In this document: positions 7,892 through 50,209 of the stretch, in pieces | Position numbering within the stretch: position 1 is the stretch's first letter | Layout of the letters: each line of letters opens with the position of its first letter | Origin: Terriglobales bacterium | GTDB taxonomy: Bacteria > Acidobacteriota > Terriglobia > Terriglobales > Acidobacteriaceae | DNA: 64,000 bases | Direction: 5' to 3' | Assembly: GCA_035651475.1 (NCBI GenBank) | Contig: DASRFP010000002.1 | Coordinates: forward strand, 46,597 to 110,596 | Program-made: the position numbers and the translations under genes | Notes under the pieces: model-generated | Told to the model about the DNA's origin: nothing | What the model saw: only the letters and a program-made list of their open reading frames with translations | Database searches by the model: none

Positions 7892-8478
7892 ACTCTGCCG
7901 TCAAACTGCAACGTGAGCGTGAAGCGCAATGGCCCGACGAGCGACTGGTTTCCGAATGCCTGAAAGGAAATCAGGAGGCGTGGTCAGCTCTGATCGATAA
8001 GTATAAGAACCTGATCTATTCAATTCCCATCAAGCTCCGCATGTACGAAGATGCGCCGGATATTTTTCAGGCGGTGTGCGTCGATCTGCTCGCAGGCCTT
8101 CCCAAGCTGCGTGATCCAAAGGCGCTCCCGAAATGGTTGATGCAGGCCTGCTACCACAGGTGCCTGCAATATCGCCGGCGGTCAGACAAGCACCCACAAC
8201 TGACGAATGAAAACGGCGAGGAACTTCAGCTGGCTTCGGAAGGTCCGCTTCCTGAGCGCATGCTGGCCGAGTTGGAGAAGGAACAGATGGTGCGAGACGC
8301 GATCGTGGAACTGAATCCGCGCTGTGAACAGATGGTCCGCATGTTGTTTTTTGAGAATCCGCCGCGTCCATACGAGGAAGTTGCGCGTGAACTGAAGCTC
8401 GCCACCGGCTCGATTGGATTTATTCGCGGACGCTGCCTGCAGAAATTAAGAAAACAGCTAGAAAAGCTGGGGTTCTGA
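7888..8478 (+). CDS. ECF-type RNA polymerase sigma-70 family factor
   Basis: Region 2 is present (LVSECLKGNQEAWSALIDKYKNLIYSI) and so is the region 4 HTH (PYEEVARELKLATGSIGFIRGRCLQKLR). The GTG start overlaps the TGA of the binding-protein gene. Confidence 0.85.
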   Translation: MNSAVKLQREREAQWPDERLVSECLKGNQEAWSALIDKYKNLIYSIPIKLRMYEDAPDIFQAVCVDLLAGLPKLRDPKALPKWLMQACYHRCLQYRRRSDKHPQLTNENGEELQLASEGPLPERMLAELEKEQMVRDAIVELNPRCEQMVRMLFFENPPRPYEEVARELKLATGSIGFIRGRCLQKLRKQLEKLGF

Positions 8479-8479
8479 A

Positions 8480-22116: not shown

Positions 22117-22231
22117 CTGTCATTCCGAGCGAGCATTCTGATCCGCAAAGCGGATCGGAAGCGGAGTCGAGGACCTGCTGTTGGCGGGAGAAAAGCAGGT
22201 TCCTCGGACCTGAAGGTCCTCGGAATGACAG
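22117..22231. repeat. MITE-like palindromic element, copy 1 (perfect 13-bp terminal inverted repeats)
   Basis: CTGTCATTCCGAG (22117-22129) and CTCGGAATGACAG (22219-22231) flank an internal hairpin GGACCTGCTG..AAAAGCAGGTTCC. Related copies are at 30085, 32035, 33768, 36988 and 59350. Confidence 0.75.
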
Positions 22232-31284: not shown

Positions 31285-31911
31285 TTATCTGGTTTTCTGG
31301 GCCACAAACGGCGCCAGCAGCGCGCGAACAGTAGCGTCGAGCAGATCGGGGGTAAAGTAATCCATTCGAAGCTGGTTCATGTGCCCGGTCTTCACGTTCA
31401 CTGCAGGCGTGGCCTGCAGGTTCCGAACGATCTGCGCGCAGGCATATTTCACTGCATCAGGGATGGTCGCCCAGCCTGCCGTGTAAGTCAGATCAACTTC
31501 GCTATACCAGAGTCCCATCAGGTTGAGCGGCAACGTAAGTTCACCGGTCGCCGGATCGACATCAATCGACGAGGGATCGATGTTGCTCCACGTTCCCGGT
31601 AGTCCGAACATAAGGGCGACGTCGAGCCGCAAATCACTGAATGGCCACTCCCCACGACGCGGCATCGTGTAGCGTCCCCGACCTGAAACAATCGACGATG
31701 TAGCGGGCGCCAGCGGCGCAAGCGGCAAGTACGTGAGGTGGACCGTATTGCGGTCCGGCACCATGCGGATCCTCTCTTCGTACTGCGCAATTGCCAGCGT
31801 CGCGCGACGGCAATGTGCATCGATCAGCGACGACGCCGCGCCAACGAGCGCCGGATCTGCCGTCGTATCGATTCCGTAAAGTTGATATTCGGTTGGATCG
31901 AGATAGTTCAC
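31285..31911 (-). CDS. putative head-tail connector/adaptor protein
   Basis: 208 aa, immediately after the capsid gene. The N-terminus MNYLDPTEYQLYGIDTTADPALVGAASSLIDAHCRR resembles gp6-type connector N-termini. Confidence 0.4.
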   Translation of the reverse strand: MNYLDPTEYQLYGIDTTADPALVGAASSLIDAHCRRATLAIAQYEERIRMVPDRNTVHLTYLPLAPLAPATSSIVSGRGRYTMPRRGEWPFSDLRLDVALMFGLPGTWSNIDPSSIDVDPATGELTLPLNLMGLWYSEVDLTYTAGWATIPDAVKYACAQIVRNLQATPAVNVKTGHMNQLRMDYFTPDLLDATVRALLAPFVAQKTR

Positions 31912-32034: not shown

Positions 32035-32121
32035 CTGTCATTCCGAAGGGATTTATTCCCGAGGAACCTGCTGTTGACATCAACTGCAGATTGCTCGTCG
32101 CTAAAGCGATTCGGAATGACA
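32035..32121. repeat. MITE-like element, copy 3
   Basis: CTGTCATTCCGAA...CGCTAAAGCGATTCGGAATGACA. The internal part closely resembles copy 5 (36988-37077). Confidence 0.65.
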
Positions 32122-33767: not shown

Positions 33768-33860
33768 CTGTTATTCCGACCTGCTTTAGCAGCGAGGAAT
33801 CTGCTGTTCGTATTCGAGAAAAGCAGGTTCCCTCAGACTTAAAAGTCCTCGGAATGACAA
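33768..33860. repeat. MITE-like element, copy 4
   Basis: CTGTTATTCCGAC...GAGAAAAGCAGGTTCCCTCAGACTTAAAAGTCCTCGGAATGACAA. The right half is near-identical to copy 1. Confidence 0.65.
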
Positions 33861-34574: not shown

Positions 34575-35825
34575 TTACACCGGCGGCAGCCCGCGCATTC
34601 TTCTGACTTCGTTCACCGTCAGCACGCCGGACTGAATCAGGATTTGCTGGATTTGCGCCTCTTCCATTGCATCCCCCGGGCCGTCTACATCGGTGAAGAC
34701 GAATTCAAGATCGTCCCATCCCAGCTTTTTCGAAATTGCGCCGCGCGTGAGATATTCCGCCAGCAGTCGCGCGGTCGGCACGATCGCCTGCCGGAAGGCC
34801 TGGTCATTCATTTCGGCTGCTGTCGAGCGGTTCACATCGCGCTCAAGCCCGAGCGCCTGGGGAGGCAAGTCGAACGCATCGGCGATGATGCGCAGCAAAA
34901 ATTCCTGCCATTGCAATCGTAGGTCGGCATCCGTGCCGCCACCGAAGCGCAGGACTTCTGGTTTGTTCTCGACGGAAAGAATTGGCACGCGCCCGGTGCC
35001 TTCAATTTCGTCTTGCCACCAGCGAATCAGGCGTTCGTGGTGATCGGGAGTTAAATTCTGCAACCATAACGCATACTCAACCACCGAGTTGGACGCGAGC
35101 TTGCTGGCGTACCGGTGAGCGCCAAGGAATGCGTTGATCGCCTCGAATGCAACCTCAAGCCGCCCGAGTCCGAACGGCGTGAAGGTGCGCGGGTTCAGGC
35201 GAATGTATATCAGTTCATCATCCGTGAGCTGGATGCCGGCACTCGGCCCGCTTTTTGCTGCCTCCTGCTCGTAACGAATCGACGTCGGCGAGCCATCCCA
35301 ATCGGCGCGGATCTTGATAGTCGCCCCGTCAACTGGCCACAACGCCAGAGGCTGATCGGAATCGCCGGTCGCGTCAACCTCAATGGCTCCGAATCCGCCG
35401 ACGATCAGGTCTTCGAGAACCTGCTCGGACAAAGAGCGGAAGGAGTCATCGGGATTTGGCGAATCAAAGTTGCGCGTGAGAATCCGGACGCGAGCTTCGG
35501 CATCCGGCAATTGCGGCACGCCAGGTTTTGACTGCACCCGCCATCGCATTCCGGCGATGTGGTCTTTAATTGTGTTGATCGCCCGCCGCGCCACCGGAAT
35601 TTCCGAGAAGCGCCGCAGGTTCATCGCCGTGGGCTTGGGCATGGTCTGCGCCCGCGGGCCATAACTGTTGAGTATCGACGGGAGCGGTACCGTTCGGCGC
35701 TTGCTTTCGATCTGTCCGCAAGATGCGCCTCCGGCAAACAGATTTCCAGCTTGTGCCATTCGGTTGACGAAAGACACTCCCGCAATCCGGCGCATTGCGC
35801 CGCGAAACGAGTTTGTAATGTTCAT
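34575..35825 (-). CDS. phage portal protein
   Basis: 416 aa. The call rests on its size, its position ahead of the protease/scaffold/capsid genes and portal-like segments (..LSEQVLEDLIVGGFGAIEV.., ..NSVVEYALWLQNLTP..). Confidence 0.7.
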   Translation of the reverse strand: MNITNSFRGAMRRIAGVSFVNRMAQAGNLFAGGASCGQIESKRRTVPLPSILNSYGPRAQTMPKPTAMNLRRFSEIPVARRAINTIKDHIAGMRWRVQSKPGVPQLPDAEARVRILTRNFDSPNPDDSFRSLSEQVLEDLIVGGFGAIEVDATGDSDQPLALWPVDGATIKIRADWDGSPTSIRYEQEAAKSGPSAGIQLTDDELIYIRLNPRTFTPFGLGRLEVAFEAINAFLGAHRYASKLASNSVVEYALWLQNLTPDHHERLIRWWQDEIEGTGRVPILSVENKPEVLRFGGGTDADLRLQWQEFLLRIIADAFDLPPQALGLERDVNRSTAAEMNDQAFRQAIVPTARLLAEYLTRGAISKKLGWDDLEFVFTDVDGPGDAMEEAQIQQILIQSGVLTVNEVRRMRGLPPV

Positions 35826-35893: not shown

Positions 35894-36109
35894 TTAGTAT
35901 CTTTCTGTGCCTATTGCGCGATGAAGTCTTGATAGCGCTCGTAATAGGGCTGACCGGTCTAGTTTGTACCTCGTCGTAAATGCGGAGCCTTCTCCGCGCT
36001 TGTCTTGTGCCACACGTCTTATCGGAGAATTGGTGATACCGGTGTACAGAGTCTTAAAGCGATTGCTCATGATGTACACAAAATAGCTTTCCCGCGGAAC
36101 CAAGTACAT
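35894..36109 (-). pseudogene. decayed GIY-YIG nuclease-family gene
   Basis: The N-terminus YFVYIMSNRFKTLYTGITNSPIRRVAQDKRGEGSAFTTRYKLDR fits the small GIY-YIG family. After ~35953 the family-like continuation (..YYERYQDFIAQ*AQKDTKD*) is in another frame and contains stops, so the region with the catalytic Glu is lost. Confidence 0.6.
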
Positions 36110-36138
36110 GGTCCTTCGCTTCGCTCCGGATGACTCAA

Positions 36139-36957
36139 TTAATGGGACGCTCTGAGCTCGACCCTGATCGCCTCCGCGATTTCCGGCATCTTCGCCGCGG
36201 GCGCAACCACGATTCCGCTCTCCTGCATCATTTCCAGCGCAAAATTCATTTCATCGCTGCGCGGAAGATCGTCATCTACGAGAGCCGTCATCCAGGCGGT
36301 CACACCTTTTTTTTCTTTCAAGCCTGCCGCTATCTGCGGGAAGCGTGACGCTAAAAGCATTCCCGGTTCAGTACGCTGGGCGAAAGATACTGCTTGCAAG
36401 AACTTGAATGACTGTCCGCTCGCATAACCGAAATCGAGCTTCAGCGGATCGCCCGGTCGCGTGTATTCGGCCATGGATATATTCCGCAGGAGAAGTGGCA
36501 AAACTCCCGCTGTCTCTAGTTCATCCGTCATATACGCAAGAATTCGTTGCCTTCCGCTGCGCTCACGTCTTTCGCCGATCGTCGGCGTTTCCAAATACAT
36601 GGAGCTGAGTCTCTCCAGTTCTTTCGCAGGTGACTCACCCAAAGACCCCTGCAATGGTTGGAACTGAACCAGGTTCGACCACGCGTCGTTCATCCGTTTC
36701 AGCAACTCGGCTCTCTTTTGTGGGTCCTGTAAATCCCGCTGAATCTCGCGCTCGAGCGCTGCTAGCTCATCCGTATCCACCAACGGGTCAAAGCAGTGCA
36801 GCCGCCTTAGATTCCGCGTGAAGCGTACGTCGGCGAATCCGCCGGCTTGCCCGTGCTCAGGCCCAATTACCGCCACGCCGAGATTGATGCTCTCGCCTTT
36901 GGTGATGTCCCCTGCATAACGCAGCAGGAAGAATTCGAGTTGTTGTAAGGCAGCCAT
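36139..36957 (-). CDS. DUF3037-domain protein with an extra C-terminal domain
   Basis: The N-terminus LEFFLLRYAGDITKGESINLGVAVIGPE...DVRFTRNLRRLHCFDP matches my recollection of the DUF3037 signature (..lRyvPd..rgEfiNvGvvl..). At 272 aa it is longer than the minimal family. Confidence 0.6.
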   Translation of the reverse strand: MAALQQLEFFLLRYAGDITKGESINLGVAVIGPEHGQAGGFADVRFTRNLRRLHCFDPLVDTDELAALEREIQRDLQDPQKRAELLKRMNDAWSNLVQFQPLQGSLGESPAKELERLSSMYLETPTIGERRERSGRQRILAYMTDELETAGVLPLLLRNISMAEYTRPGDPLKLDFGYASGQSFKFLQAVSFAQRTEPGMLLASRFPQIAAGLKEKKGVTAWMTALVDDDLPRSDEMNFALEMMQESGIVVAPAAKMPEIAEAIRVELRASH

Positions 36958-36987
36958 CAGTCGCTCAGCCTTCAGCCTCCGCCACCG

Positions 36988-37077
36988 TTGTCATTCCGAG
37001 AACCTTTAAATCCGAGGAATCTGCATTCCTGTGGGCAACTACAGATTCCTCATCGCTAAAGCGATTCGGAACGACAT
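36988..37077. repeat. MITE-like element, copy 5 (between the DUF3037 and kinase genes)
   Basis: TTGTCATTCCGAG...TCCGAGGAATCTGCATTCCTGTGGGCAACTACAGATTCCTCATCGCTAAAGCGATTCGGAACGACAT. Confidence 0.65.
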
Positions 37078-37102
37078 TCACAAAGGGAACCGCTCCACAA
37101 CG

Positions 37103-37948
37103 CTAATTCTCTATCCACCCCGGAAACGGGTTCCTGACCGAGACTCGAAAACAATTGATTAGCTCCCGGACTCTGGCCCTACGCCGTAATAGCTCTGACC
37201 CAAGTTTTTCGAGCGCTCCCAAGTCACTTCCGTACCACTCCGGCGGAATCTGTTCTGTCTGACTCCAGACATCCTTCTCGCAAAAATTCTCGATTCGCGA
37301 GAGCCAGGGCTCAAACGACTTCCAACCTTTCACCCGCGCGTAAGCTTCGTTTCGCGCGAACACCCCGCGCAATGGATAATCCGGAAACGACCATTCTCCC
37401 GCGTTGAAGCAGTAACCCTGATCGATAAACGTCGCTGTGTATTTGCGTTCGCGACCCTTGCGCCAGAACGCGGCCTGGCGCCCGTTGGCATTTCCTGTCC
37501 ACTTGTCGAGTGCTAACATGCCGGCGAATGCGTCAATGTTTCGCAACCGATCAAATAGCTCAATTGGCAACCAGTCGAGCACCCGGCCTTCTTTCGGATC
37601 GACAACATACCGCGATCCAAACTGCAGGCCCGGCTCGCAAGCGATCACATTACCCGACAATTGAATATTCAACTCCGGCGAATGCTTAATCAGCCACTCG
37701 CCGACGTCTACGACGTCCGTCACCGGGACTGGCAAACCGACGCGCTCTGCGAACCGTGTCGCCAATAACTCGTTCGCCAGAACACGCAGGTGCTGCGGGT
37801 TGTTGCGGAATTTGACCACATAATAATGATGGTCAGAGCAGAGCATTAAATGGCTCTGCGCGCCACCTCGCATCCTGCGAACGTGTTGGACGGCCGTAAG
37901 GGGCAAAACTTGGTTCGACCAATGCCTGTCATCCGGGATCAAGTACAT
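37103..37948 (-). CDS. HipA-like (HipA_2-type) putative Ser/Thr kinase
   Basis: ATG at 37948 (MYLIPDD..). Segments RGGAQSHLMLCSDHHYYVVKFRNNPQHLRVLANELLATRFAERVGLPVP, LDKWTGNANGRQ and TFIDQGYCFN match the nucleotide-binding, catalytic-loop and DxG-like regions of HipA-family kinases as I recall them. It pairs with a DUF3037 gene. Confidence 0.6.
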   Translation of the reverse strand: MYLIPDDRHWSNQVLPLTAVQHVRRMRGGAQSHLMLCSDHHYYVVKFRNNPQHLRVLANELLATRFAERVGLPVPVTDVVDVGEWLIKHSPELNIQLSGNVIACEPGLQFGSRYVVDPKEGRVLDWLPIELFDRLRNIDAFAGMLALDKWTGNANGRQAAFWRKGRERKYTATFIDQGYCFNAGEWSFPDYPLRGVFARNEAYARVKGWKSFEPWLSRIENFCEKDVWSQTEQIPPEWYGSDLGALEKLGSELLRRRARVRELINCFRVSVRNPFPGWIEN

Positions 37949-38086
37949 AGGTCCTTCGACCAGGCATACGGACTCGCACGCGGGTCCGCGTCCTCGGCTC
38001 ACGATGACAGGAAAGGAATATTACTGAATTCCATTTCGGAACTCTGTGACGGATGAACATCTTCAGGCTGTGGATTTTGCGCCCCG

Positions 38087-39124
38087 CTATTTGCCTACTT
38101 TGGTTGAAGATCTATCCGTGATTACCACCTCGCGAATTGCGATTACGACAGCTTCTGGTGCGTACAACTGAATTTCGTGCCCGGAATTGGGGACTGTTAC
38201 CTGCTTGCCACGACTTGATAGTTCAGCCATACGCGCCTGCTGACTTTTATGTTCTTGAACAAGCATCGCGCCATTCGGCCCTGGATAGTCAAATTCGCCT
38301 CGTGAGAGAACGATTAGAGGCACATTGCCAAGTGGGTTCTTTTTTGCTTTGCTCTCCGCGTACATTCTCGCTGAAATTTCTGGCATGTAATTGTCATCGT
38401 CGGCGTAGTATTTCGGTTGCCGAACCGCCTACAAACGAACGTGTTGGGCAAATTCCGGCAGTTTGTCGTAAGGCGTTTCAATCTTTGGAGGAGGCATTTG
38501 TTTAAGCAAATCTTTTATCTTCGTCAACTCCTCAGAAGAAAGTTCGTCGGTACTGCTCACGGACGTTCGAGGCGAGGGAATCGGTCGATTTTTCGAAAGC
38601 AGACGCATCCGCTTCATCTCGCCATTGACTGAGAGTTGGGCATCTTCGCTATAGGCATCCACCAGTACAACTCCCACAACTTCCTCCGAATATCGTTCTG
38701 CGAAAATGCGAGCAATCATTCCTCCGAGCGATTGGCCAACGACTACGTAGGGCCCATGCTCGCCAGCAGCCGCTAGTAGACGATGTAGATCAAATGCTTC
38801 CTGATCCATGCTCCTCGGTTTGGGTCCAAGATCGCTCCAAGCAGCTCCACTCCGGTCGTAGGAGCAAACGCGCGTATACGCCGCCACCTTGGGTTGCACC
38901 AGGGCCCAGTCCGTTGAGAACGCGCCGCCGCCAGCCGATAACACAACCGTCGGTTTGCCTTTTCCCGTGCAGTCGATGTGCAGACTATACCCGCCCAGGT
39001 CAACCATGCGGCCAGTCAGAGGCGGGGCTAGTTCGTCATGTCCTCGAACAGAAGCCGCACTCGCGAGCCAGCCTGAACCCAGCACTATCCAAGCCCAAAA
39101 GGCTGCAATCAAGACAGAGTTCAT
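38087..39124 (-). pseudogene. secreted alpha/beta hydrolase interrupted by an in-frame TAG
   Basis: ORFs 38429..39160 and 38087..38386 are in the same frame: ..EFAQHVRL-TAG(38431-38429)-AVRQPKYYADDDNYMPEISARMY... The nucleophile elbow GQSLGG is in the upstream part and the catalytic-His context NSGHEIQ is in the downstream part. The signal peptide starts at ATG 39124. The gene is visibly more AT-rich than its neighbours. Confidence 0.7.
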
Positions 39125-39162
39125 GCGTTGAATCTTAACAATGAACTGTTGAAGACACATCC

Positions 39163-40668
39163 TTACTTATATGCACTCCGCGCGACTGCCTCCCGCCCAG
39201 CCAGCGCAACCGCCATGGCCATCACGCAATCGTCATGGCTGCCCGAGGTGCTTCCCGAACTGCCATTCACGCGGCGAATGAACGTCCGGCATTCGGCCAA
39301 AAGCCTGGAACTTTGAAACAGCTCGGGCTTGACGGACAAGATCGCCGCCAGGTTCTCGATCATCGCAGGTTTCGTCACCGCCGAAGTCAGCCAGCCATCC
39401 TGATCCCCATCCCGAAATACGTTTTGATATCCAGCTGCGCGGAGGTTTGCCAGCACGCCATGCCCGTGGTTGTTTCGCTCAATCACCAGCAGCGCATCGT
39501 TATACATGCGCGCCAGCTCGATCAACTTGGCCGCTAGCTCGCGCGGAGAATAGTGCCCATGCAACTCCGCGCATTGCATAGTAGTTTGGCGGTCAATAAC
39601 CTGCGCGCAGGCATAGTCGCCGTCGGTCCCACCGCCGGCCGGATCGACTCCGATAATGTATTGCCGTGTGCGACGTGCTTCGAGCCATATCGTCAGGCGG
39701 CCGTTATCGCGAACGATCGTTGCCGGAGACAAATATTGGAGCGCCCGATCGATCACCTCGAGTTCGAACACGCATTCTCCAGAAGCGCGAAAGCACGAGA
39801 CTGGATCTTCCGCATATTCCTGCGCGGCAAGTCCTCGCAACTGCGCGCGATTCGTTCTGCGCCAGGCGATCTGCGCGTCGCTCAATCCAACTCGGCGGAC
39901 GAGCTCTTCTTCTTCCGGCGTGAGCGGATGAACCTGAAGTAATCGCGTCTTGTCGCGATACTCATCGTCATACCACCAGGGAAAAAAGTGTCGTGTATAT
40001 CCCGTTTCATTCGCGTGTTGCCACTCTTCATAGAAAATTCCAGCCGCGCCATTTGGCGTTGACTCCAGAACAATGTCACCGTCATTAGGTACCGCAGCTC
40101 GCAGCGATGCCAACGCCTCCTCCGGTTCGTGCAGCCAGCGGGCGACCTCCGAGCAATGCAAATTGTGGATGGTCAGCCCGCGGCCTGCATTTACGTCCGC
40201 TGCGGTGGCCACTCGATATTCGCTATCGAGGCGGGGGAACACCATTTGGCGGACGTTGGCGCGTGAGCGGATGAGCGCGCCGCGTCTCATCGCTTGGGGC
40301 AGGTTCTCCCAGAAGCGATGCACAATCTTGAAAATCTCTTCCGCTGATTCCTGGTCATGCGCGACCTGCACGGTCATCGTTCCCGGCCGCGTAATCGTTT
40401 GGATAAAGAATCGCGCGGCAATATAGGTGGTGATCCCCATTTGCCGCGCCTTTACCACGATGTTGCGATTCGAGCAGCTTTGCGAAAACTCCCGCTGCGC
40501 GCGATTCAGTTGCAAACTGACTAAGCCACGCGCCTTGCTGCGTACCCGCAACAAACTACCGATAAGAAAATCGCGGACAGTGATGCGAGAGAAGCCTACG
40601 CGATGCGCGGAACTTTCTGCATCAAGCCGCTTGCCGAACTCCTGCAGCACCACCAGGTCATGGGTCAA
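39163..40668 (-). CDS. phage terminase large subunit
   Basis: ATPase motifs VVKARQMGITTY (Walker A-like) and IHNLHCSEVARW (Walker B-like). The RNase-H-like nuclease half has IIGVDPAGGGTDGDY, LVIERNNHGHG and SHDDCVMAMAVAL. Confidence 0.8.
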   Translation of the reverse strand: MTHDLVVLQEFGKRLDAESSAHRVGFSRITVRDFLIGSLLRVRSKARGLVSLQLNRAQREFSQSCSNRNIVVKARQMGITTYIAARFFIQTITRPGTMTVQVAHDQESAEEIFKIVHRFWENLPQAMRRGALIRSRANVRQMVFPRLDSEYRVATAADVNAGRGLTIHNLHCSEVARWLHEPEEALASLRAAVPNDGDIVLESTPNGAAGIFYEEWQHANETGYTRHFFPWWYDDEYRDKTRLLQVHPLTPEEEELVRRVGLSDAQIAWRRTNRAQLRGLAAQEYAEDPVSCFRASGECVFELEVIDRALQYLSPATIVRDNGRLTIWLEARRTRQYIIGVDPAGGGTDGDYACAQVIDRQTTMQCAELHGHYSPRELAAKLIELARMYNDALLVIERNNHGHGVLANLRAAGYQNVFRDGDQDGWLTSAVTKPAMIENLAAILSVKPELFQSSRLLAECRTFIRRVNGSSGSTSGSHDDCVMAMAVALAGREAVARSAYK

Positions 40669-40688: not shown

Positions 40689-42929
40689 CTATTTCGCCCT
40701 GCCCGTGCTTTCGGGGACCAGAGCGTACGCACCGATTTCCCAGTTGCTACCGAATAGTGTCTGGTCGATACCCAGTAAGTCATACTTAAATTCGGTGCTA
40801 AGTGTCCCACCCGAATCAGTCAGCGGCGACTGTACCGTCGGACGCAGATCTAGCGGCGGTCCCGCAACTGAATCTGCATAGTAGGTCGTGCCGGAGTTCT
40901 GCTGCGTGCTCAGCAGGTAGTTGACAAGCTGGGTATTTGTCATCAAGGCTGCGCCGGATTGCTTCAACGTGTCGAGCATTACTTCAACCTGGTGCGCCGG
41001 CAACTCGTTCACGTGCCAAAAAATTCCGATTGGAAGACCCCAAACTGCGGACTTGAAAACGAGAGCGCGCAACTTGTTCGCTAGTTGCGCATCAGTCAGG
41101 TTCTGAAAGTTCGGCGCAATTCCCTGGCTTAGAATGTTCTGCACATTAACGCCGCTGCTCATGACCGTGTCTGCATCGGGCGACGGACGCATTACGCCTG
41201 ATCCGCGTGCGCCTGCATAGCCCGCGGCGACCGCAATCGCTTCTGTCGAAGTATCTTCATAGCTTCCGGGATAAACATAAACTCGATTTGCAGGCAGGCC
41301 GGTCAAATTCGCGCTCATCCACGCCATCGCCCAGTTGAGTTCGTCCGTCATCAGCCGCGTCTTGTCCATCTGTAGCGTGTAAGGCGTGCTTGTGATGTCG
41401 GTCGGCGCAACGTCAGCCAGGTCTTCGCTTTTGACTGCGCTTTTCATGTTCGGATCGAGATCCACAGAAAACACGCCGCGTTGCTGCAAGGTGAAGACGA
41501 TGCCGCCCAGGGTGTCGAGTCCGCTTGGGACAATGTCCGTCCCTGAAGACGTCAGGTCCCAGTTCACCTGAGCTGATGGATCCCCCGGCGCCGTTATTAC
41601 GAGATGTTTACTCGATATCGACAACGTAACGCTGCTCGCCGCCGTTCCCGTGTACTGAAGCGTGAACGCATTCGGAAATACGAAGTATTGGTGTGATACG
41701 GAGTGCGTGTTTACGTCCCAGCCTGCATTGATCCACGATTGGAAAGTCGGCACCAGTTGCTGTGAAAGCGGATATCCCGTTACTACTGCAATACTGAGCG
41801 GGAAACTCTTCTGCTGAAACATGGGCAGCAGCGCCTCAATGTATTGGTGCGATCCATCTATTAGCCCAGGATCGTCATATGTCACCGTAATTCGCGCAGG
41901 ATATTGCATGAAGCCGCGCACATTTGGAGGAGTATCGGCGGGGATATTGTTGCCGCCGTCGATCGGCCCCGGCGTTCCGGAAATGTCAGTCGAAACTCCA
42001 GTTGCGATGTTGTTTGCATAAAAATGACAGTATGAGTACGTCACCGCGCCAGTGTTGTCCACTAACGCATAGGTTCGGTTCGCGTAAGCACGGCAATTCT
42101 TTAGCTCGATCTGAGACGCTGGGTTGTCGAAGTGATATCCAACGTAGTTCCGGTGCGCGTCGGTGTTGTAGAGATGAATGTTTCCCGGGTTGCTGCTCGA
42201 GTGAACGTAGAACCCGATCGGCACAGTTGCGTTCGGCACCTGGCTATCGGCAAGCATGTTTGCCAACCATATGTAATCGCTGTTTCCCTGGATCTGAACG
42301 CCGTAGCTGTCGTACCAATCGAGCTTGATGTGCTGAATTTCGATATAACTGACGCTATTAATGTTGATCAGCGATTGCCCGCTCAAAATAATCGGCGTGA
42401 CTGCCCCGTAAGCAGTGACAGGATTGCCGCCGGATGAATACACGTAGAGGTCTTGCGTGCCGCTGTCGTAATACCAATCGCGATTGTGCGCCAGTGCGGC
42501 CTGCGAGATCTGCAAGTTTCCCCAGATGCTTCCAAATTGCACGAACTTGAGTTGCGAAATGGCCTGCGCCGCGCTGAGAGTAATCTGCCAGACGCTTCCA
42601 AGTGTGTTCGTCCATTGCGCACTGGTTGTCACGTACCGGCCCGTAAACTCGGGCGGTTGTCCGTTGCCGTAAGCATCGAATTTGATCAAATTCCCTGCTG
42701 TTCCACTGGAGGGTGGAGTAAGCCACTCATTCCATATTGCATCGCGTTTGAACAGAATCACGTCACCCGGCGAGAACGTCGATATTCCCACTTTGAGCAA
42801 CGTGCGCCACGGCGTCTGTGGAGACAGCCCGTCGTTTCCATTCGAGCCTGCCGGATCCACGTAATACGTCGTGGCGCTCGCGCCTGCGCAGAGAAACACG
42901 ATCGCCAGCAGCCAACGGCTTGCGTTCAC
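40689..42929 (-). CDS. secreted right-handed beta-helix protein fused to a polysaccharide deacetylase (NodB-like) domain
   Basis: Signal peptide MNASRWLLAIVFLCAGASA, then TTYYVDPAGSNGNDGLSPQTPWRTL..PGDVILF, typical of pectate-lyase-fold proteins. A central ITVTYDDPG...NTHSVSHQ segment resembles the NodB motifs. It lies 20 nt upstream of the terminase gene. Confidence 0.6.
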   Translation of the reverse strand: MNASRWLLAIVFLCAGASATTYYVDPAGSNGNDGLSPQTPWRTLLKVGISTFSPGDVILFKRDAIWNEWLTPPSSGTAGNLIKFDAYGNGQPPEFTGRYVTTSAQWTNTLGSVWQITLSAAQAISQLKFVQFGSIWGNLQISQAALAHNRDWYYDSGTQDLYVYSSGGNPVTAYGAVTPIILSGQSLININSVSYIEIQHIKLDWYDSYGVQIQGNSDYIWLANMLADSQVPNATVPIGFYVHSSSNPGNIHLYNTDAHRNYVGYHFDNPASQIELKNCRAYANRTYALVDNTGAVTYSYCHFYANNIATGVSTDISGTPGPIDGGNNIPADTPPNVRGFMQYPARITVTYDDPGLIDGSHQYIEALLPMFQQKSFPLSIAVVTGYPLSQQLVPTFQSWINAGWDVNTHSVSHQYFVFPNAFTLQYTGTAASSVTLSISSKHLVITAPGDPSAQVNWDLTSSGTDIVPSGLDTLGGIVFTLQQRGVFSVDLDPNMKSAVKSEDLADVAPTDITSTPYTLQMDKTRLMTDELNWAMAWMSANLTGLPANRVYVYPGSYEDTSTEAIAVAAGYAGARGSGVMRPSPDADTVMSSGVNVQNILSQGIAPNFQNLTDAQLANKLRALVFKSAVWGLPIGIFWHVNELPAHQVEVMLDTLKQSGAALMTNTQLVNYLLSTQQNSGTTYYADSVAGPPLDLRPTVQSPLTDSGGTLSTEFKYDLLGIDQTLFGSNWEIGAYALVPESTGRAK

Positions 42930-42965
42930 AAGAGCTCCTGATTTGACTTGAATTAATCGAATCGA

Positions 42966-45900
42966 CTACTGCACGCGTCTGTAGGTGATGTATAGCGCGT
43001 ATGTCCCCGTTCCGGTCGTACACGCGGTGTAACTAGTCGAATACGTGAGATTGTTGCTTTGCGAATTGTTCCAGATCGTCATCGCCGCTTCTCCAAAATT
43101 GGCGGTGCTTCCTAGTGCAACCGAGCCGCTGGTTACTCCTGAACCTTGCAGCGGAACTGTCATGGTCCGCGCGCCGGTGCGGTCGCCCCAGCCAATGGTC
43201 ACCGAAACCGCCGCCGATCCCGGTGACGAACACGCCGCATCCGACTCGAGATAAACATTGATTGCATACTCGCCGACGGTGGCTCCGCCGAGCAGGTTCG
43301 TGGTCGTGATCGCAGCGGTTTGTTCGGTCAAATTTACTGGCCCACCGGAGGTATTCGCGCTTCCCTGCAAGAGCAGCGCCGGCGTGTACAACGCGGTGCC
43401 AAAATACCCCGTCGCAGGACGGAAATTAACATCCCCGAGTGAGTAGGCATTATCAAGGAAGGGTTTTAGCTCCGAAGCCGAGTTGATTCCCCAGCGAATA
43501 CCCGAGCCGATCCAAAATCCGATGCCGGGCTGCTGCGTGTAATCCGGCCCGGCGATTTCATTCTTTATAACGAAATATCCGTCGCTCTGGTCCCAGGTAA
43601 GTGCGGTACGTTCCCAATCTGTGGCGCTGTTCCAGGCTCGATATACGCGAAACGTTTGCGGATTTGTGCTATTTACTTCCTCCAGAGTGTTCTGTGAGTT
43701 CGTGCCGCCGGTGTCCTGGTTGAAAACATTCGTCAGCCCAAGCTGCACGGCTTGACCGGCATTATCGATCGCTTTGGCGCAATGACATGTTGAATCGAAC
43801 CAGAAGATGCCGTAGTTCGGAATTCCGGTTGGCGCAGTTGTCTCAGCAAGCTGAATTTGATCGGCCGTGCTGCAGTTCGCATTGCCGTTCGCCTGAATTC
43901 CGGTCGCGAAACTTCCGCTGCATTGAGTGGGAATTTGTGCCAGCGCCTCGGCCGTGGGCACATTGCCAGTGGTGTCGAGTTTCGCAACCTCGAGCAGCGG
44001 CCCTCCGTTTTCAGAAACTTGCAATTTTCCGCTGGTTCCGAATCCGATCAGTGACTGCCCCGAACTCGCGGGACTCAAAGATCCGAATCCGGTTTGCGTC
44101 ATCCAGGGGCCTGTTCCTGAAGCGACGAACGCGCTCGCCTGGGTTGCTCCTGTCACCGTCAGCGCCGAATCCATCTGCACATTAGTTTTAAATTCTTTCA
44201 GGCTGCTGCTAAGACGCTCCAGCCAGCTTGTTCCGTCCCCGACGTTTCCGATGTAGTTTGAAAGTGAAAGCGGAGCGCCAAAGCTAATGCCGATATCCGC
44301 CGGGTTGCCATCGCCGCGGTCGTATCCGATGAATGCGTCGTTGGCATCGTTCGTCGGACGATTATTCTGCGACGCGATCGTCTTCTGAAAGTTTGAGTCC
44401 GAAAGAGTAATGATGTGACTTGGTCCCGATCCAAGCGTCGGGAAGTTCAACCGTCCTTTTAAGTTCAATGCCAGCCCACCATCTGCATTCGGCTTGGCAG
44501 CGAGCAACAACGCTCCTTGTTGATAGAAACTGCCTGGGGCCATGGCGGTATAGCAGCTTAGCCATATCGGCGTCCATCCTGACATGGAATCGCAATTGTT
44601 GGCGATAACTGAAGGTTGCGCCATCCCAGCAACCCCGACAATATCGCTCGGCGTATTCTGCAACCAGGCACGTGCGGGACTCAATGGCGAGTTGGCATCC
44701 GCAGAGGCGGCCAATACTAGAGAACCTGGCCAGAACGTCAGCAATGGGAAATAACTTGGAACCGCGACTGTGTAGCTTTGCAGCGCGGCTTGAGTATCCA
44801 TAAAGGTGCACACGCCACTCGAGCAGGCCGAGGAACGCAAGACGCCGGCCAGCACTGCGAAGTTTCCGGTGCCAAACGGCGCTTGCTCTAAGCCGGTATT
44901 CGTCACTCGTAGAAGGTCAAACGAAGTGGCGCCCGCAATGTCGGGAGCCGTGACGGTAATGCTTCCCGTCCCATTCGTCAGCGCGCGTCCCGCATATAGC
45001 GCATTGCTTGCGCCATAGCTGGTATTGTGTGCGACCACGTAATAGCGGTAATCAGTCGTTCCCGTATTCACAAACAGCGGCACCACTCCGCTTGGAGCTT
45101 CGCCGCCGGAAATTCTGACCGAGTTCCCCTGCATAATCACGCCCGCTTCACCGAGGTTGCCCAGCGGATTCGTGCAGCTTCCTACTTCTTCATAAATGTT
45201 ATCGAGATCGAGTCCGCCGTAGCCGCCGCGCCTGGTGCCACCGCGCACGCCATATTGTGCATAGCCTTGAATCACGCTGTCTGAGATCCTCAGCGTGTTC
45301 CCGCTTTCCCAGTCCACGCCGTTGCCATTGCACTGCAATGAGATGTTCAGGTTCTTCAGCCATCCCACAGCGGAAAAAACGTTGAATGGACCGGGCGCAT
45401 AGACCGCTGCCCCGCAATAGGTACTGTCGCATCGCAGGCCACCCCCGATCGTGGTATCCAGTCCATCGAGCAGGAATGCCTGATCGTCATCCACCTGCAC
45501 GTACGTGCCGAATGTGCCCCCTGAATATGGCACTCGAGTTTCGACATTCATCAACCGGCTCTTCTGCGCATTAACTTCTATGAAGGGCGCCGTTGCACCA
45601 GCAACCGCCGCGCGTCCGCGAGGGTTCACCAGAGTGATGTCTTCAAAGAGATTGGAATTGGAACTATCTCCAACGAAGATGCAGGTGTCGTTCATCCAAC
45701 ATTCGACGATCGATCCAGTGAAATCTACCGTGATGTTCGAGGCACGAATTGCAATTCGTGCATAAGCTTTGAACTCGCCCGGAGGCACGATTACTTTTCC
45801 TGACTGTGAGGTCCCAGTTGGATTCGACGGCGTGAAGCGTGCCGCAATCAGCGCCTCTTGCAATCCGCCGGACGCGCTTGCGACCGTGTAACCTGCCGAG

Positions 45901-47009
45901 TGGGTATTTGCGGTCGTGAACTGCAGCGTGCCCGGCCTGCTGTCCCCGGCGCAGGTGCCGCCGGTTACTAACGCTGCTTCCGCGGTTCCGGTTCCAGAAA
46001 TGTAGACGTAGTAGTACGGCTCATTGCCCGTTACTCCCGGTGGACATTGCGTCAGAGTTACGGTATTTATGCCCGCGGCGCTCAGGTTGCTGGCCGGTGT
46101 CTGGCTCCATGCGTAATCGGTGGCGTACTTAATCGCCTGCATTCCCGGAGTTAAACCAGGACCGCTGCCTGTTCCACATCCACCCCACGTGGAATCGCCG
46201 CGCAGGCAGACGCCGTTGTTCGCTATCCCCGTTCCCAGTTCAGCAACCGGAACTACTCCGCCGATGAGATCGGCTTTGCCGCCGGAAGCGAGGTCAACAT
46301 AATGCTTATCCGCCGCTTGCTCTGGCGCCGCGGGGTCCCCAGGCAGGGTCAGCGGCCCTGTCATTGTGTCGCCAACCTTTGAAACGTAACTCCCGCTTCC
46401 GACGTTGCCGATCGCGGAATCAACGTAGGACTTGGTCGCCGCGTCCCCGGCTTGGGACGGCGTGGGCAAGCTTGGGGAAACCGCAAAGGTCTTTACTCCG
46501 GTTACTGTTTCGTTTCCGCTCAGGTGCACCACCGTTGCCAATTGTGCGTTTACATACTGCTGTGTCGCAGCCTGTGCTGCCGGAGTCGCGGTTCCCACGA
46601 CTGTCCGGACGGCGGAAATCGTCTCCGGAGAGGACGTTCCGATTGACCAGGTTTCCGTTTTCACAGTTCCATCTGTCAGCTGATACGTGACTGTGTAAAC
46701 CGTTCCAACAGGTGTGGCTCCGGCGTTAGGCGCAAGCTGTGCAGTAAAATTTCCGTTTGCCCCGAGTGTTACGCTGAGATTGCCGGCTGCGACCGTGGCA
46801 CCCCCCGTTGTCGTGAACGCGGGCCAGGAAATCAACAGCGTTCCAGAAGCTGGATTTCCGTCTGCTCGATACACGGTGTCGCTGATGGTACTCAGCGTTG
46901 GGCCTTGTGCCGACGCACGCAGCACCAGCAGCGCCAACAAACACGCAGGCCACATAACAGAAATCGGGCAATAAAAAAGCCGCCACTTCAGGCGGCTTGC
47001 GTCCAGCAT
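42966..47009 (-). CDS. 1347-aa secreted protein with phage tail-fibre-like N-terminal repeats and a beta-helix region
   Basis: GGAGGA lies 5 nt before ATG 47009. The signal peptide ends ..LLALLVLRASAQG. The tail-fibre-type motifs QQYVNAQLA, TKSYVDSAIG, GDTMTGPLTLPGDP and DKHYVDLA follow, then a long Gly/Asn/Thr-rich beta-rich region. Confidence 0.6.
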   Translation of the reverse strand: MLDASRLKWRLFYCPISVMWPACLLALLVLRASAQGPTLSTISDTVYRADGNPASGTLLISWPAFTTTGGATVAAGNLSVTLGANGNFTAQLAPNAGATPVGTVYTVTYQLTDGTVKTETWSIGTSSPETISAVRTVVGTATPAAQAATQQYVNAQLATVVHLSGNETVTGVKTFAVSPSLPTPSQAGDAATKSYVDSAIGNVGSGSYVSKVGDTMTGPLTLPGDPAAPEQAADKHYVDLASGGKADLIGGVVPVAELGTGIANNGVCLRGDSTWGGCGTGSGPGLTPGMQAIKYATDYAWSQTPASNLSAAGINTVTLTQCPPGVTGNEPYYYVYISGTGTAEAALVTGGTCAGDSRPGTLQFTTANTHSAGYTVASASGGLQEALIAARFTPSNPTGTSQSGKVIVPPGEFKAYARIAIRASNITVDFTGSIVECWMNDTCIFVGDSSNSNLFEDITLVNPRGRAAVAGATAPFIEVNAQKSRLMNVETRVPYSGGTFGTYVQVDDDQAFLLDGLDTTIGGGLRCDSTYCGAAVYAPGPFNVFSAVGWLKNLNISLQCNGNGVDWESGNTLRISDSVIQGYAQYGVRGGTRRGGYGGLDLDNIYEEVGSCTNPLGNLGEAGVIMQGNSVRISGGEAPSGVVPLFVNTGTTDYRYYVVAHNTSYGASNALYAGRALTNGTGSITVTAPDIAGATSFDLLRVTNTGLEQAPFGTGNFAVLAGVLRSSACSSGVCTFMDTQAALQSYTVAVPSYFPLLTFWPGSLVLAASADANSPLSPARAWLQNTPSDIVGVAGMAQPSVIANNCDSMSGWTPIWLSCYTAMAPGSFYQQGALLLAAKPNADGGLALNLKGRLNFPTLGSGPSHIITLSDSNFQKTIASQNNRPTNDANDAFIGYDRGDGNPADIGISFGAPLSLSNYIGNVGDGTSWLERLSSSLKEFKTNVQMDSALTVTGATQASAFVASGTGPWMTQTGFGSLSPASSGQSLIGFGTSGKLQVSENGGPLLEVAKLDTTGNVPTAEALAQIPTQCSGSFATGIQANGNANCSTADQIQLAETTAPTGIPNYGIFWFDSTCHCAKAIDNAGQAVQLGLTNVFNQDTGGTNSQNTLEEVNSTNPQTFRVYRAWNSATDWERTALTWDQSDGYFVIKNEIAGPDYTQQPGIGFWIGSGIRWGINSASELKPFLDNAYSLGDVNFRPATGYFGTALYTPALLLQGSANTSGGPVNLTEQTAAITTTNLLGGATVGEYAINVYLESDAACSSPGSAAVSVTIGWGDRTGARTMTVPLQGSGVTSGSVALGSTANFGEAAMTIWNNSQSNNLTYSTSYTACTTGTGTYALYITYRRVQ
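46971..46998 (-). terminator. terminator-like hairpin plus U-run inside codons 4-13 of the 1347-aa gene
   Basis: On the minus strand: AAGCCGCC / UGAAGU / GGCGGCUU followed by UUUUAU. Confidence 0.5.
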
Positions 47010-47046: not shown

Positions 47047-47628
47047 TCAATCCCCGCTCCTCACCTGCTGCTGCAAAAAATTCTCGACGCTGTTGACATA
47101 TACGTCGGCAAAGTCAACCACCGGTCGCCGCGATGAAATTGTTTCCATTGCGCTGCCCATCTCCCAGCCCATTGAGGACAACACAGCAAGCGTCATCATG
47201 GCAGCTCGGTGCACGCCCGCGGCACAGTGGATGAACAACTTGCTTCCCGGTTGATCGAGAGCATCCATGGCAAAGTCCACTCCGCGCTCCAGAAGTTCCG
47301 GCGGCTTGGGCTGAAAGTCGTCATCCGTCGCATTCCACAACACCTGAATCCCATGCGGTCCTGCCAGTGGCGTGTCGTCGAACTCGATTTGCATGTCAAT
47401 GACATGGGTAACGCCCATCCGCGCCAGCTCAGCCATGTTTTCCGGATTCCAAATGCCGCCACCAAGCGCAACCCGATCGGTAATCCAAGTTATGTCGATC
47501 CCCAAGTTTCGCACTCTCCCGCGCTCAGAATGAACTCCGCCGCACCGTTTTGACGCCAGAATTCCTGTTTGGCGTTGCAGGGCTTTTGCGAAACGAAGCT
47601 CTGCTTGCAGGCGATCAGCCAATCCCAT
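47047..47628 (-). CDS. dual-specificity / tyrosine protein phosphatase (Cys-based)
   Basis: The P-loop HCAAGVHRA is the C-x5-R signature. The ATG at 47628 (MGLADRL..) lies one nt after the upstream stop. The longer track ORF overlaps the upstream gene. Confidence 0.75.
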   Translation of the reverse strand: MGLADRLQAELRFAKALQRQTGILASKRCGGVHSERGRVRNLGIDITWITDRVALGGGIWNPENMAELARMGVTHVIDMQIEFDDTPLAGPHGIQVLWNATDDDFQPKPPELLERGVDFAMDALDQPGSKLFIHCAAGVHRAAMMTLAVLSSMGWEMGSAMETISSRRPVVDFADVYVNSVENFLQQQVRSGD

Positions 47629-47629
47629 T

Positions 47630-47929
47630 TTACGGGTTTCTCGTTTTGCTCGTAACGTCATCCGATTTCGCACTCTCAGGCAACCCAAGCTGGGCAAGCA
47701 GTACCCGCGCCAGGGAGTCCTCTCCGCCCGCCTCACTCTCGGCAGCTGCCGGATAGAGCCCAATCATCTCGAAGAGGTACTTCATCGCCTGATATTGACC
47801 CTCCTCGCGTACGGCATCGATCGCCTGTTGCACCATGGGAACGGCATTCTGGGCAACCAATTCGGTTATTTTTCGGCGCAGGTCGCCCAATTCCAGGGGA
47901 GGGCTGGCGTTTCGGGTGCGCGTTCCCAT
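47630..47929 (-). CDS. hypothetical small helical protein
   Basis: The ATG at 47929 (MGTRTRNASPP..) is preceded by GAGG and lies just downstream of a terminator. The track's upstream extension crosses that terminator. Confidence 0.4.
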   Translation of the reverse strand: MGTRTRNASPPLELGDLRRKITELVAQNAVPMVQQAIDAVREEGQYQAMKYLFEMIGLYPAAAESEAGGEDSLARVLLAQLGLPESAKSDDVTSKTRNP

Positions 47930-49492: not shown

Positions 49493-50209
49493 ATGAAGTT
49501 CAAGGCCTTACAGGAAAATCTTCGCAAAGCACTTTGGGAACGGATTGACGAGGGCGATCTGACCGGCCTGAAACTGGCGTCACAAACTGGTTTCCGGCAG
49601 GCTCATATCTCGAACTTTCTAAACCGAAAACGAAGCTTGAGCCTGGATGGCATGGACCGGGTGTTGAGCGTACAGCACCTCTCAGTGCTGGACTTGCTTG
49701 ATCCGGCCGAGGTCAACAAGCGCGCCACCGTTCGCCCGCCCAGTGACGATGAATTCGAGAACATTTTTGTCGTAGACGGCTGGGTCGCCGCTACCCAGCC
49801 CCTCGTCATGAGCATGAACGTCCGTGAAATTTACAAAATCAAGCGCAGTTTTCTCCGCAAGCTGCGCTCAGATATGCATGGCAGGCGCAGTGACTGGGAA
49901 CGGTTTGTGGCCATAAAGATCGAGGCCACTGATGGAATGAGCATGTATCCGCGTCTGCTGCCCGGGGCTACGGTGCTCATAGACCGCCATTACAACAGTT
50001 TGCACCCTTATCGAAAGGGCGAATTGAACATGTACGCTGTGCGCACGAAAGACTCATGCGTCATCCGTTATGTTGAGCTGGCCGGGAAAAACATCATGCT
50101 CAGGCCGCACAGCCAGACTTATCCCATAGAAGTTCTCCCCCTGGCTGAAGGCGAACCCTCTTCTGACTATTTAGTTGGCCGAGTTTGCTATATAGGAATA
50201 GAGACTTAA
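49493..50209 (+). CDS. LexA/CI-like repressor (N-terminal HTH plus C-terminal S24 peptidase domain)
   Basis: The N-terminus LKLASQTGFRQAHISNFLNRKRSLS is HTH-like. The C-terminus DGMSMYPRLLPGATVLIDR...VIRYVEL...LRPHS fits the S24 self-cleaving repressor fold. It is divergent from the phage-like operon. Confidence 0.8.
   Translation: MKFKALQENLRKALWERIDEGDLTGLKLASQTGFRQAHISNFLNRKRSLSLDGMDRVLSVQHLSVLDLLDPAEVNKRATVRPPSDDEFENIFVVDGWVAATQPLVMSMNVREIYKIKRSFLRKLRSDMHGRRSDWERFVAIKIEATDGMSMYPRLLPGATVLIDRHYNSLHPYRKGELNMYAVRTKDSCVIRYVELAGKNIMLRPHSQTYPIEVLPLAEGEPSSDYLVGRVCYIGIET

Follow-up and report, generated by a model that had tools for sequence, protein, structure and literature searches.

The DNA analysed here (the window) is a stretch of 64,000 nucleotides from contig DASRFP010000002.1 (assembly GCA_035651475.1), part of a Terriglobales metagenome-assembled genome (MAG). 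It carries a gene for a HipA_2-family kinase and, downstream of it in the same orientation, a gene for a DUF3037 protein, the two being separated by a spacer of 145 bp (Table 1). Both open reading frames (ORFs) had been picked out by a first-pass annotation made from the letters alone, and they were found again on the minus strand, kinase first, with the same spacer; the two kinase strings quoted in that annotation, LDKWTGNANGRQ and FIDQGYCF, are both present. The prophage-like setting that it had proposed also holds, as the neighbours are phage genes (terminase, portal and head-tail adaptor). GenBank holds the same DUF3037 protein (100% identity) from a Terriglobales MAG. By analogy with homologues that have been tested elsewhere, we favour, with some reservation, the view that the pair is a prophage-borne HipAD-type toxin-antitoxin module serving abortive infection or exclusion, possibly working with a phosphatase of the same element.

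In Pfam, the kinase matched HipA_2 (PF20613) at 36.2 bits (cut-off 27) over residues 24-120 only, and the DUF3037 protein matched PF11236 at 47.2 bits (cut-off 22.6) over residues 11-121. Searches of NCBIfam gave no match to either protein, and sequence and profile searches of the PDB with both returned nothing useful, only a marginal match of the kinase N-lobe to Shewanella HipA. The kinase family is large: more than 8000 clusters at 90% identity were scored, which is a lower bound, and 2713 clusters at 50% identity were found at E ≤ 1e-3.

Table 1. Features in and around the kinase-DUF3037 pair, in positions of the window.
Feature	Position	Strand	Description
HipA_2-family kinase	37103..37948	-	281 aa from ATG at 37948; homologue of HipAD/DS-6A; Asn155 at the catalytic-Asp position
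DUF3037 protein	36139..36957	-	272 aa; homologue of HipD/DS-6B; N-terminal DUF3037 plus C-terminal domain of ~135 aa
Large terminase subunit	39163..40668	-	Pfam Terminase_6C plus synteny; upstream edge of the pair's slot
Portal protein	34575..35825	-	Pfam Phage_portal 163.6 bits plus synteny; downstream edge of the pair's slot
Dual-specificity phosphatase (DSP; DSPc), Cys-based	47047..47763	-	Pfam DSPc PF00782 38.8 bits; conserved core ~47047-47520; candidate third component
Palindromic repeat, 88 nt (like a miniature inverted-repeat transposable element, MITE, or a repetitive extragenic palindrome, REP)	36989..37076	.	hairpin in the kinase-DUF3037 spacer
Head-tail adaptor	31285-31911		neighbouring phage gene
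S24 repressor-like gene	49493-50209		
GIY-YIG ORF, 71 aa	35894-36109	-	

The name HipAD was reportedly given by Brenes and Laub in 2025. DUF3037 has been described as strongly associated with HipA-like kinases, and the pair has been equated with the PADLOC candidate system PDC-M66 (PMC12548924, 2025). In the Retron-Sda1 operon, deletion of the kinase abolished defence against phage Bas51, and deletion of the DUF3037 gene was toxic (PMC12548924). The E. coli pair DS-6 was validated as a defence system and renamed HipAD in the DefensePredictor study (PMC13092281), in which a complex of DS-6A and DS-6B with DNA was predicted, the catalytic mutant D139A of DS-6A was reported to lose defence (mutation and sequences in the supplement), and the C-terminal domain of DS-6B was assigned to DUF1829 (supplement). 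The kinase-DUF3037 pair goes unmentioned in Kaur et al. 2020 and Payne et al. 2024. The statement of the first-pass annotation that the function of these recurrent neighbours had not been determined is therefore outdated. Its further suggestion, that the pair arrests growth or excludes phages by means of the kinase while DUF3037 serves as antitoxin or sensor, gains support from the tested homologues and would apply to the window pair by analogy.

A profile built from 62 relatives of the window kinase aligned with DS-6A at an hhalign probability of 99.2% (E = 7e-20, 209 columns). The DUF3037 protein is 26% identical to DS-6B over 136 aa in BLASTP (E = 1e-7), and its profile aligned with DS-6B at 95.9% probability over residues 6-170, the alignment ending at about residue 170. 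Homology to E. coli HipAD is thus full-length by profile for the kinase and confined to the N-domain for the partner, at an identity of approximately 24-26%. DS-6A itself is 100% identical to the "HipA toxin" gene of Escherichia phage PhiR5_1, where it adjoins a "HipD antitoxin" just after cI. Judged by sequence, the window pair is a diverged member of the HipAD (DS-6/PDC-M66) class. In both, a HipA_2 kinase of about 250-280 aa is followed on the same strand by a DUF3037 protein of about 270 aa, both pairs are prophage-borne, and the C-terminal domain of the partner appears nuclease-like (DUF1829 in DS-6B, tentatively a PD-(D/E)xK-like fold in the window). They differ in several respects: the window kinase has Asn155 where DS-6A has D139, the residue needed for defence, its catalytic loop reads NxNGRQ whereas DS-6A has NADR plus an insert, and its genes are parted by a MITE-bearing spacer whereas those of E. 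coli overlap. The window pair lies between terminase and portal and the E. coli pair next to cI, and a DSP phosphatase is linked in the window lineage, while no counterpart was found described for E. coli HipAD. With its Asn catalytic loop, its fixed terminase-portal slot and a probable phosphatase partner, the module is distinct from E. coli HipAD.

Compared with the better known HipBA and HipBST systems, the window pair shares the kinase fold class, the Gly-rich GAQ loop, the ATP-binding Lys, the Mg-binding Asp and a toxin-antitoxin logic. HipA targets GltX, and HipT targets TrpS. Several features of canonical HipBA were not found in the window, however. Pfam revealed no HipA N-terminal domains, and the HipA_C score of the kinase (19.5 bits) is below the cut-off of 30.5. 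The Mg-binding Asn of the HipA DxHxKN motif is absent as well, since position 160 is Ala in the window and mostly Val in the family. While HipBA has the helix-turn-helix protein HipB encoded upstream, the window kinase is preceded by an apparent alpha/beta-hydrolase pseudogene and then the terminase. There is neither HipB nor HipS in the window, and the candidate antitoxin, DUF3037, is encoded downstream of the kinase and is unrelated to HipB.

To place the pair in a wider context, loci were compared from 15 kinase-seeded viral contigs, 2 look-up loci and the best 80 of at least 592 matches in species-representative genomes, these best 80 being mostly Terriglobia/Acidobacteriota MAGs (loci carry L numbers below). 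Of 97 assessable loci, 90 have a DUF3037 gene within 3 kb of the kinase and in the same orientation; in three more it is encoded on the opposite strand. Linkage between the two genes is tight. In most loci the gene order is terminase, kinase, DUF3037, portal, p218 and a conserved protein of 323 aa, which matched no family and is probably the capsid protein. A scan seeded with the portal, and hence unbiased as to the presence of the pair, recovered related phage contigs, of which 18 of 21 carry the pair between large terminase and portal. In the other three (L101, L103 and L104) the terminase directly abuts the portal, so the pair is accessory, though unusually persistent. The slot also takes other inserts, namely GIY-YIG ORFs, the alpha/beta hydrolase of the window and kb-sized inserts elsewhere. 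In one locus (L199:10001-16184) a kinase 69% identical to that of the window and its DUF3037 partner adjoin genes for ArdC-N and ParB, and neither a terminase nor a portal gene is in the vicinity; the pair therefore also travels on a plasmid-like element or one resembling an integrative and conjugative element (ICE). A structural or morphogenetic role, as the position between terminase and portal might suggest, was rejected in view of the absence of the pair from three of the 21 contigs and its presence outside phages.

Residue conservation was read from a kinase family alignment of 62 sequences. Invariant in this alignment are G28, K46, D148, W150, D176 and F181, and near-invariant N153, R157 and Q158; G28 belongs to the Gly-rich loop, and the rest of this GGAQ loop is largely conserved. 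Position 155 is Asp in 52 sequences, Asn in seven and another residue in three. The AlphaFold2 (AF2) model of the kinase has a predicted local distance difference test score (pLDDT) of 95.3, and its best Foldseek matches were Fam20C, CtkA, CotH, PI4KIIα, HipA and HipT, with template modelling (TM) scores of at most 0.6. The closest solved folds among these are CtkA of H. pylori and the atypical kinases Fam20C/CotH (Foldseek E ~1e-6), which have no detectable sequence similarity to the window kinase and a different biology. In the profile alignment, F-D-K-W-I-L-N-A-D139-R of DS-6A stands opposite L-D-K-W-T-G-N-A-N155-G-R of the window, and a weak hhalign alignment to E. coli HipA (25.7% probability) sets N155 opposite D309 and R157 opposite H311. 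Both alignments put the catalytic-Asp position at N155, so the Asn that had been assigned to it by eye in the first-pass annotation was correctly called. D148, which forms a DxxxxN pattern with N153 (D148-KWTG-N153), was considered as the true catalytic base and judged less likely, because it lies inside helix 140-151 of the pLDDT-95 model and the profile alignments favour position 155.

Beyond this alignment, 115 of the 119 closest homologues with a readable motif have Asn at position 155 and four have Asp, while among 145 more distant representatives Asp (122) prevails over Asn (20). As far as the sequences tell, these are almost the sole residues tolerated there. A rough neighbour-joining (NJ) tree of 148 sequences has Asp as its root state and requires at least ten changes between Asp and Asn, with a subclade of Asp-type kinases nested within the Asn-type phage clade. 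Between the window and L001, both Asn-type, the ratio of nonsynonymous to synonymous substitution rates (dN/dS) was 0.045 for the kinase, 0.062 for DUF3037, 0.035 for the portal and 0.098 for the terminase, figures that are rough since dS is near saturation. On these comparisons Asn is a lineage trait rather than a sign of decay, and the Asn form is maintained by selection, because Asn is clade-wide, switching between Asp and Asn is repeated and dN/dS is low. A private inactivating mutation or pseudogene was rejected on the clade-wide Asn and the low dN/dS. We infer that the Asn-type kinase is attenuated, not dead.

Within the clade, DUF3037 proteins can be aligned from end to end. They have diverged about twice as fast as the kinases, with 29-80% identity among the related loci compared versus 61-90% for the kinase, as would be expected for an antitoxin or a sensor. 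The AF2 model of the window protein has a pLDDT of 80, with residues 135-270 mostly above 90. Foldseek searches with the C-terminal domain gave modest matches to PD-(D/E)xK nucleases, the best being Cdn1 (E = 5e-4), followed by Card1, NucS, R.BspD6I, Can2 and XisH. Matches of the protein to viral models comprised two full-length uncharacterised proteins, a DUF1828 protein and endonuclease-like proteins. Within the domain, D170 and D175 are invariant and K185 is near-invariant, whereas the (D/E)xK motif has no conserved acidic residue two positions ahead of its Lys (S183 in the window). A PD-(D/E)xK-nuclease-like fold may thus tentatively be predicted from the model. None of 54 family members matched DUF1829 in Pfam, and the window protein and DS-6B are alike in length (272 and 275 aa, respectively).

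The first-pass annotation had also mentioned a Cys-based phosphatase of the same element that could counteract the kinase. The window protein keeps the motif HCAAGVHR (CX5R), which is invariant together with DDDF in 11 homologues. In seven genomes (L057, L083, L088, L093, L096, L098 and L100) the kinase is directly preceded, in the same orientation, by a gene for a homologue with 50-65% identity, a comparative observation in favour of the idea that the phosphatase could counteract the kinase. One of these, L083, carries the trio of DSP phosphatase, HipA_2 kinase and DUF3037 at 6384-8661 among ordinary metabolic genes, with no phage genes within 7 kb. The flank downstream of the trio is common to L083, L098 and L096 and holds genes for a Nal1-like peptidase and for a 2-oxoacid dehydrogenase E2 (50-85% identity), so that inheritance of the trio at this single chromosomal site spans species. 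The cluster resembles prophage genes that have been domesticated. In the NJ tree the trio kinases of the seven genomes form one subclade among phage-borne kinases, and all are Asn-type. This arrangement suggests that the phosphatase works with the kinase-DUF3037 pair, and also that Asn-type kinases still phosphorylate something, because a phosphatase with an intact active-site motif is kept beside them. In the phages, the phosphatase gene lies upstream of the large tail-like genes, approximately 9 kb from the kinase. Relatives of the phosphatase numbered at least 541 in metagenome contigs; the phosphatase-seeded viral and metagenome contigs were taken with 10-kb flanks, and these reach the kinase in L138 only.

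Among known systems, KKP (PfkA/PfkB/PfpC) of Pf prophages offers the best precedent for a phosphatase in the role of antidote or trigger point. It comprises two kinases, and its abstract names no DUF3037 partner; the likeness is one of gene content. As for KKP-like clustering, kinase and phosphatase are apart in the window and adjacent in the seven related genomes.

The mechanism that we infer from the observed homology, conservation, synteny and phosphatase linkage, in its toxicity, neutralisation, trigger, target and phosphatase role alike, would be as follows. By analogy with the tested homologues, the HipA_2 kinase would act as the growth-arresting effector, and the DUF3037 protein would bind and neutralise it. 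When another phage infects, the kinase would be set free or activated and would abort that infection, with the outcome that the lysogen and the resident prophage would be protected. The DSP-type Cys phosphatase would probably reverse the phosphorylation, either as a reset or as a second antidote.

Several observations weigh against such a defence module. The pair lies within the late structural block and is oriented as terminase and portal are, whereas HipAD of the E. coli phage is next to cI; given this position, expression in the lysogen is not evident, and a scan for promoters and terminators at the pair gave no signal and was uninformative. A near-constant single slot together with core-gene-like conservation is unusual for a defence moron. 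N155 equals the position of D139 in DS-6A, whose Ala mutant loses defence, so that the kinase could be inactive; in E. coli HipA, an Asp-to-Gln change at the same position is reported to inactivate the enzyme. Both proteins matched PDC-M66A/B, which speaks for the homology, but the matches were weak and limited to the N-terminal parts (E = 2.6e-6 and 9.6e-5, without PADLOC thresholds). Finally, some 9 kb separate the phosphatase from the kinase in the window, and the evidence for its link comes from one subclade.

A bolder version of the defence module, which we consider rather unlikely as a whole, would be a three-component phospho-switch, made up of an Asn-type HipA_2 kinase, a DUF3037/nuclease-like protein and a DSP phosphatase, in a widespread prophage lineage of Terriglobia. 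Its kinase would work without the canonical catalytic Asp, either through a transfer that is slow or assisted by the substrate, or as a pseudokinase that depends on ATP; its phosphatase would serve as antidote, or else as the site where an invading phage sets the system off. Phages would have retained the switch as a near-core module, and one bacterial lineage would have domesticated it as a chromosomal operon. Such an architecture is not described for HipAD. 

HipAD was validated in E. coli only recently. The locus in the window shows a very high abundance of this family in soil Acidobacteria. It also nominates the phosphatase as a third player, which would connect HipAD to KKP-type phosphorylation switches. 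The interchange of Asp and Asn under strong purifying selection amounts to a natural experiment at a catalytic residue, which can tell whether the rate of phosphotransfer matters. In addition, the assignment would aid the annotation of a common prophage family in a phylum of which only a few phages have been characterised.

The prevalence of Asn at the catalytic-base position among the close homologues, combined with a retained ATP-binding Lys, DFG-like Asp and Gly-rich loop, would also fit a protein that binds ATP without phosphorylating anything. The DUF3037 nuclease-like domain could then, for example, be the effector and the kinase-like protein its nucleotide-dependent regulator, a proposal to which the resemblance of the partner's C-terminal domain to PD-(D/E)xK nucleases, with D170, D175 and K185 kept, lends some weight. 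However, Asp- and Asn-type kinases occupy the same slot beside the same partner and have interconverted at least ten times, which suggests functional equivalence. Moreover, the (D/E)xK acidic residue is unconserved, a phosphatase with an intact active-site motif adjoins Asn-type kinases, and the toxic part in the homologues is the kinase. We therefore regard a pseudokinase or sensor as clearly unlikely.

Kinase, phosphatase and DUF3037 could alternatively set the phosphorylation of host or phage proteins for lysogeny, induction or takeover, with exclusion at most a side effect, in a manner resembling the prophage KKP module or the T7 kinase. A prophage kinase/phosphatase module can control lysogeny in addition to defence, as KKP demonstrates (PMC11341870). 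The near-universal presence of the pair in one phage lineage, its conservation at the level of terminase and portal, its place inside the late gene block and the phosphatase in the same element all agree with such a regulator of the phage life cycle. On the other hand, the pair is missing from three close relatives. Outside phages, pair or trio has been kept at a chromosomal site that is conserved between species, and also beside ArdC/ParB genes. The tested homologues, moreover, are stand-alone defence systems, and this role, too, is clearly improbable. A purely selfish addiction module, stabilising the prophage by killing cells that lose it and playing no part against other phages, would account for the toxin-antitoxin-like architecture, the long retention within one element and the persistence as a chromosomal remnant, but is very improbable given that the homologues provide measurable phage defence, even though addiction and defence are not mutually exclusive.

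The spacer of the favoured HipAD-type module holds an 88-nt palindrome with a folding energy of -60.9 kcal/mol (z = -4.6). Three related copies occur in the window (22189-22230, 32036-32121 and 33774-33859), all intergenic, and the family is 74-83% alike, in keeping with the MITE that the first-pass annotation had placed in the spacer. An orthologous copy (85% identity) is present in the same kinase-DUF3037 spacer of L001, whereas none was found in the other loci compared, approximately 2.25 Mb in all, the more distant relatives being without it. In many related loci the gap between the tblastn matches of kinase and DUF3037 is shorter than 100 bp (L002 45, L006 49 and L010 37). As no T-run follows it, the hairpin is not a classical terminator; an effect on the ratio of kinase to DUF3037 protein is speculation.

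The annotated start of the kinase is uncertain, because many homologues are 267 aa long, which fits a TTG at codon 15 (37906), and because a 19-nt motif, CGAAGGACC(T)ATGTACTTG, is common to the kinase gene and the GIY-YIG ORF. This motif occurs only twice in the window, at 37940-37958 and 36101-36118 on the minus strand, i.e., at the annotated kinase start and at the start of the 71-aa GIY-YIG ORF. In L001 the kinase is closely preceded by a GIY-YIG gene. The first 14 codons may thus be a remnant of a GIY-YIG gene, the real start then being the TTG at 37906 (267 aa). The kinase core is not touched by this uncertainty.

Two further stretches of the minus strand were noted around the terminase. 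An alpha/beta-hydrolase gene at 38087-39160, wedged between the terminase stop codon and the kinase, is split into ORFs of 243 aa and 99 aa, apparently as a pseudogene that arose by a frameshift or stop, and no counterpart was found in the related loci compared for synteny. The stretch at 40689-47009, which follows the phosphatase and precedes the terminase, encodes two very large proteins on the same strand as the latter, one of 1347 aa without a clear domain and one of 746 aa with a beta-helix and a polysaccharide deacetylase domain. Tail-fibre/depolymerase-like genes upstream of the terminase represent an unusual order, yet one that is kept in many relatives.

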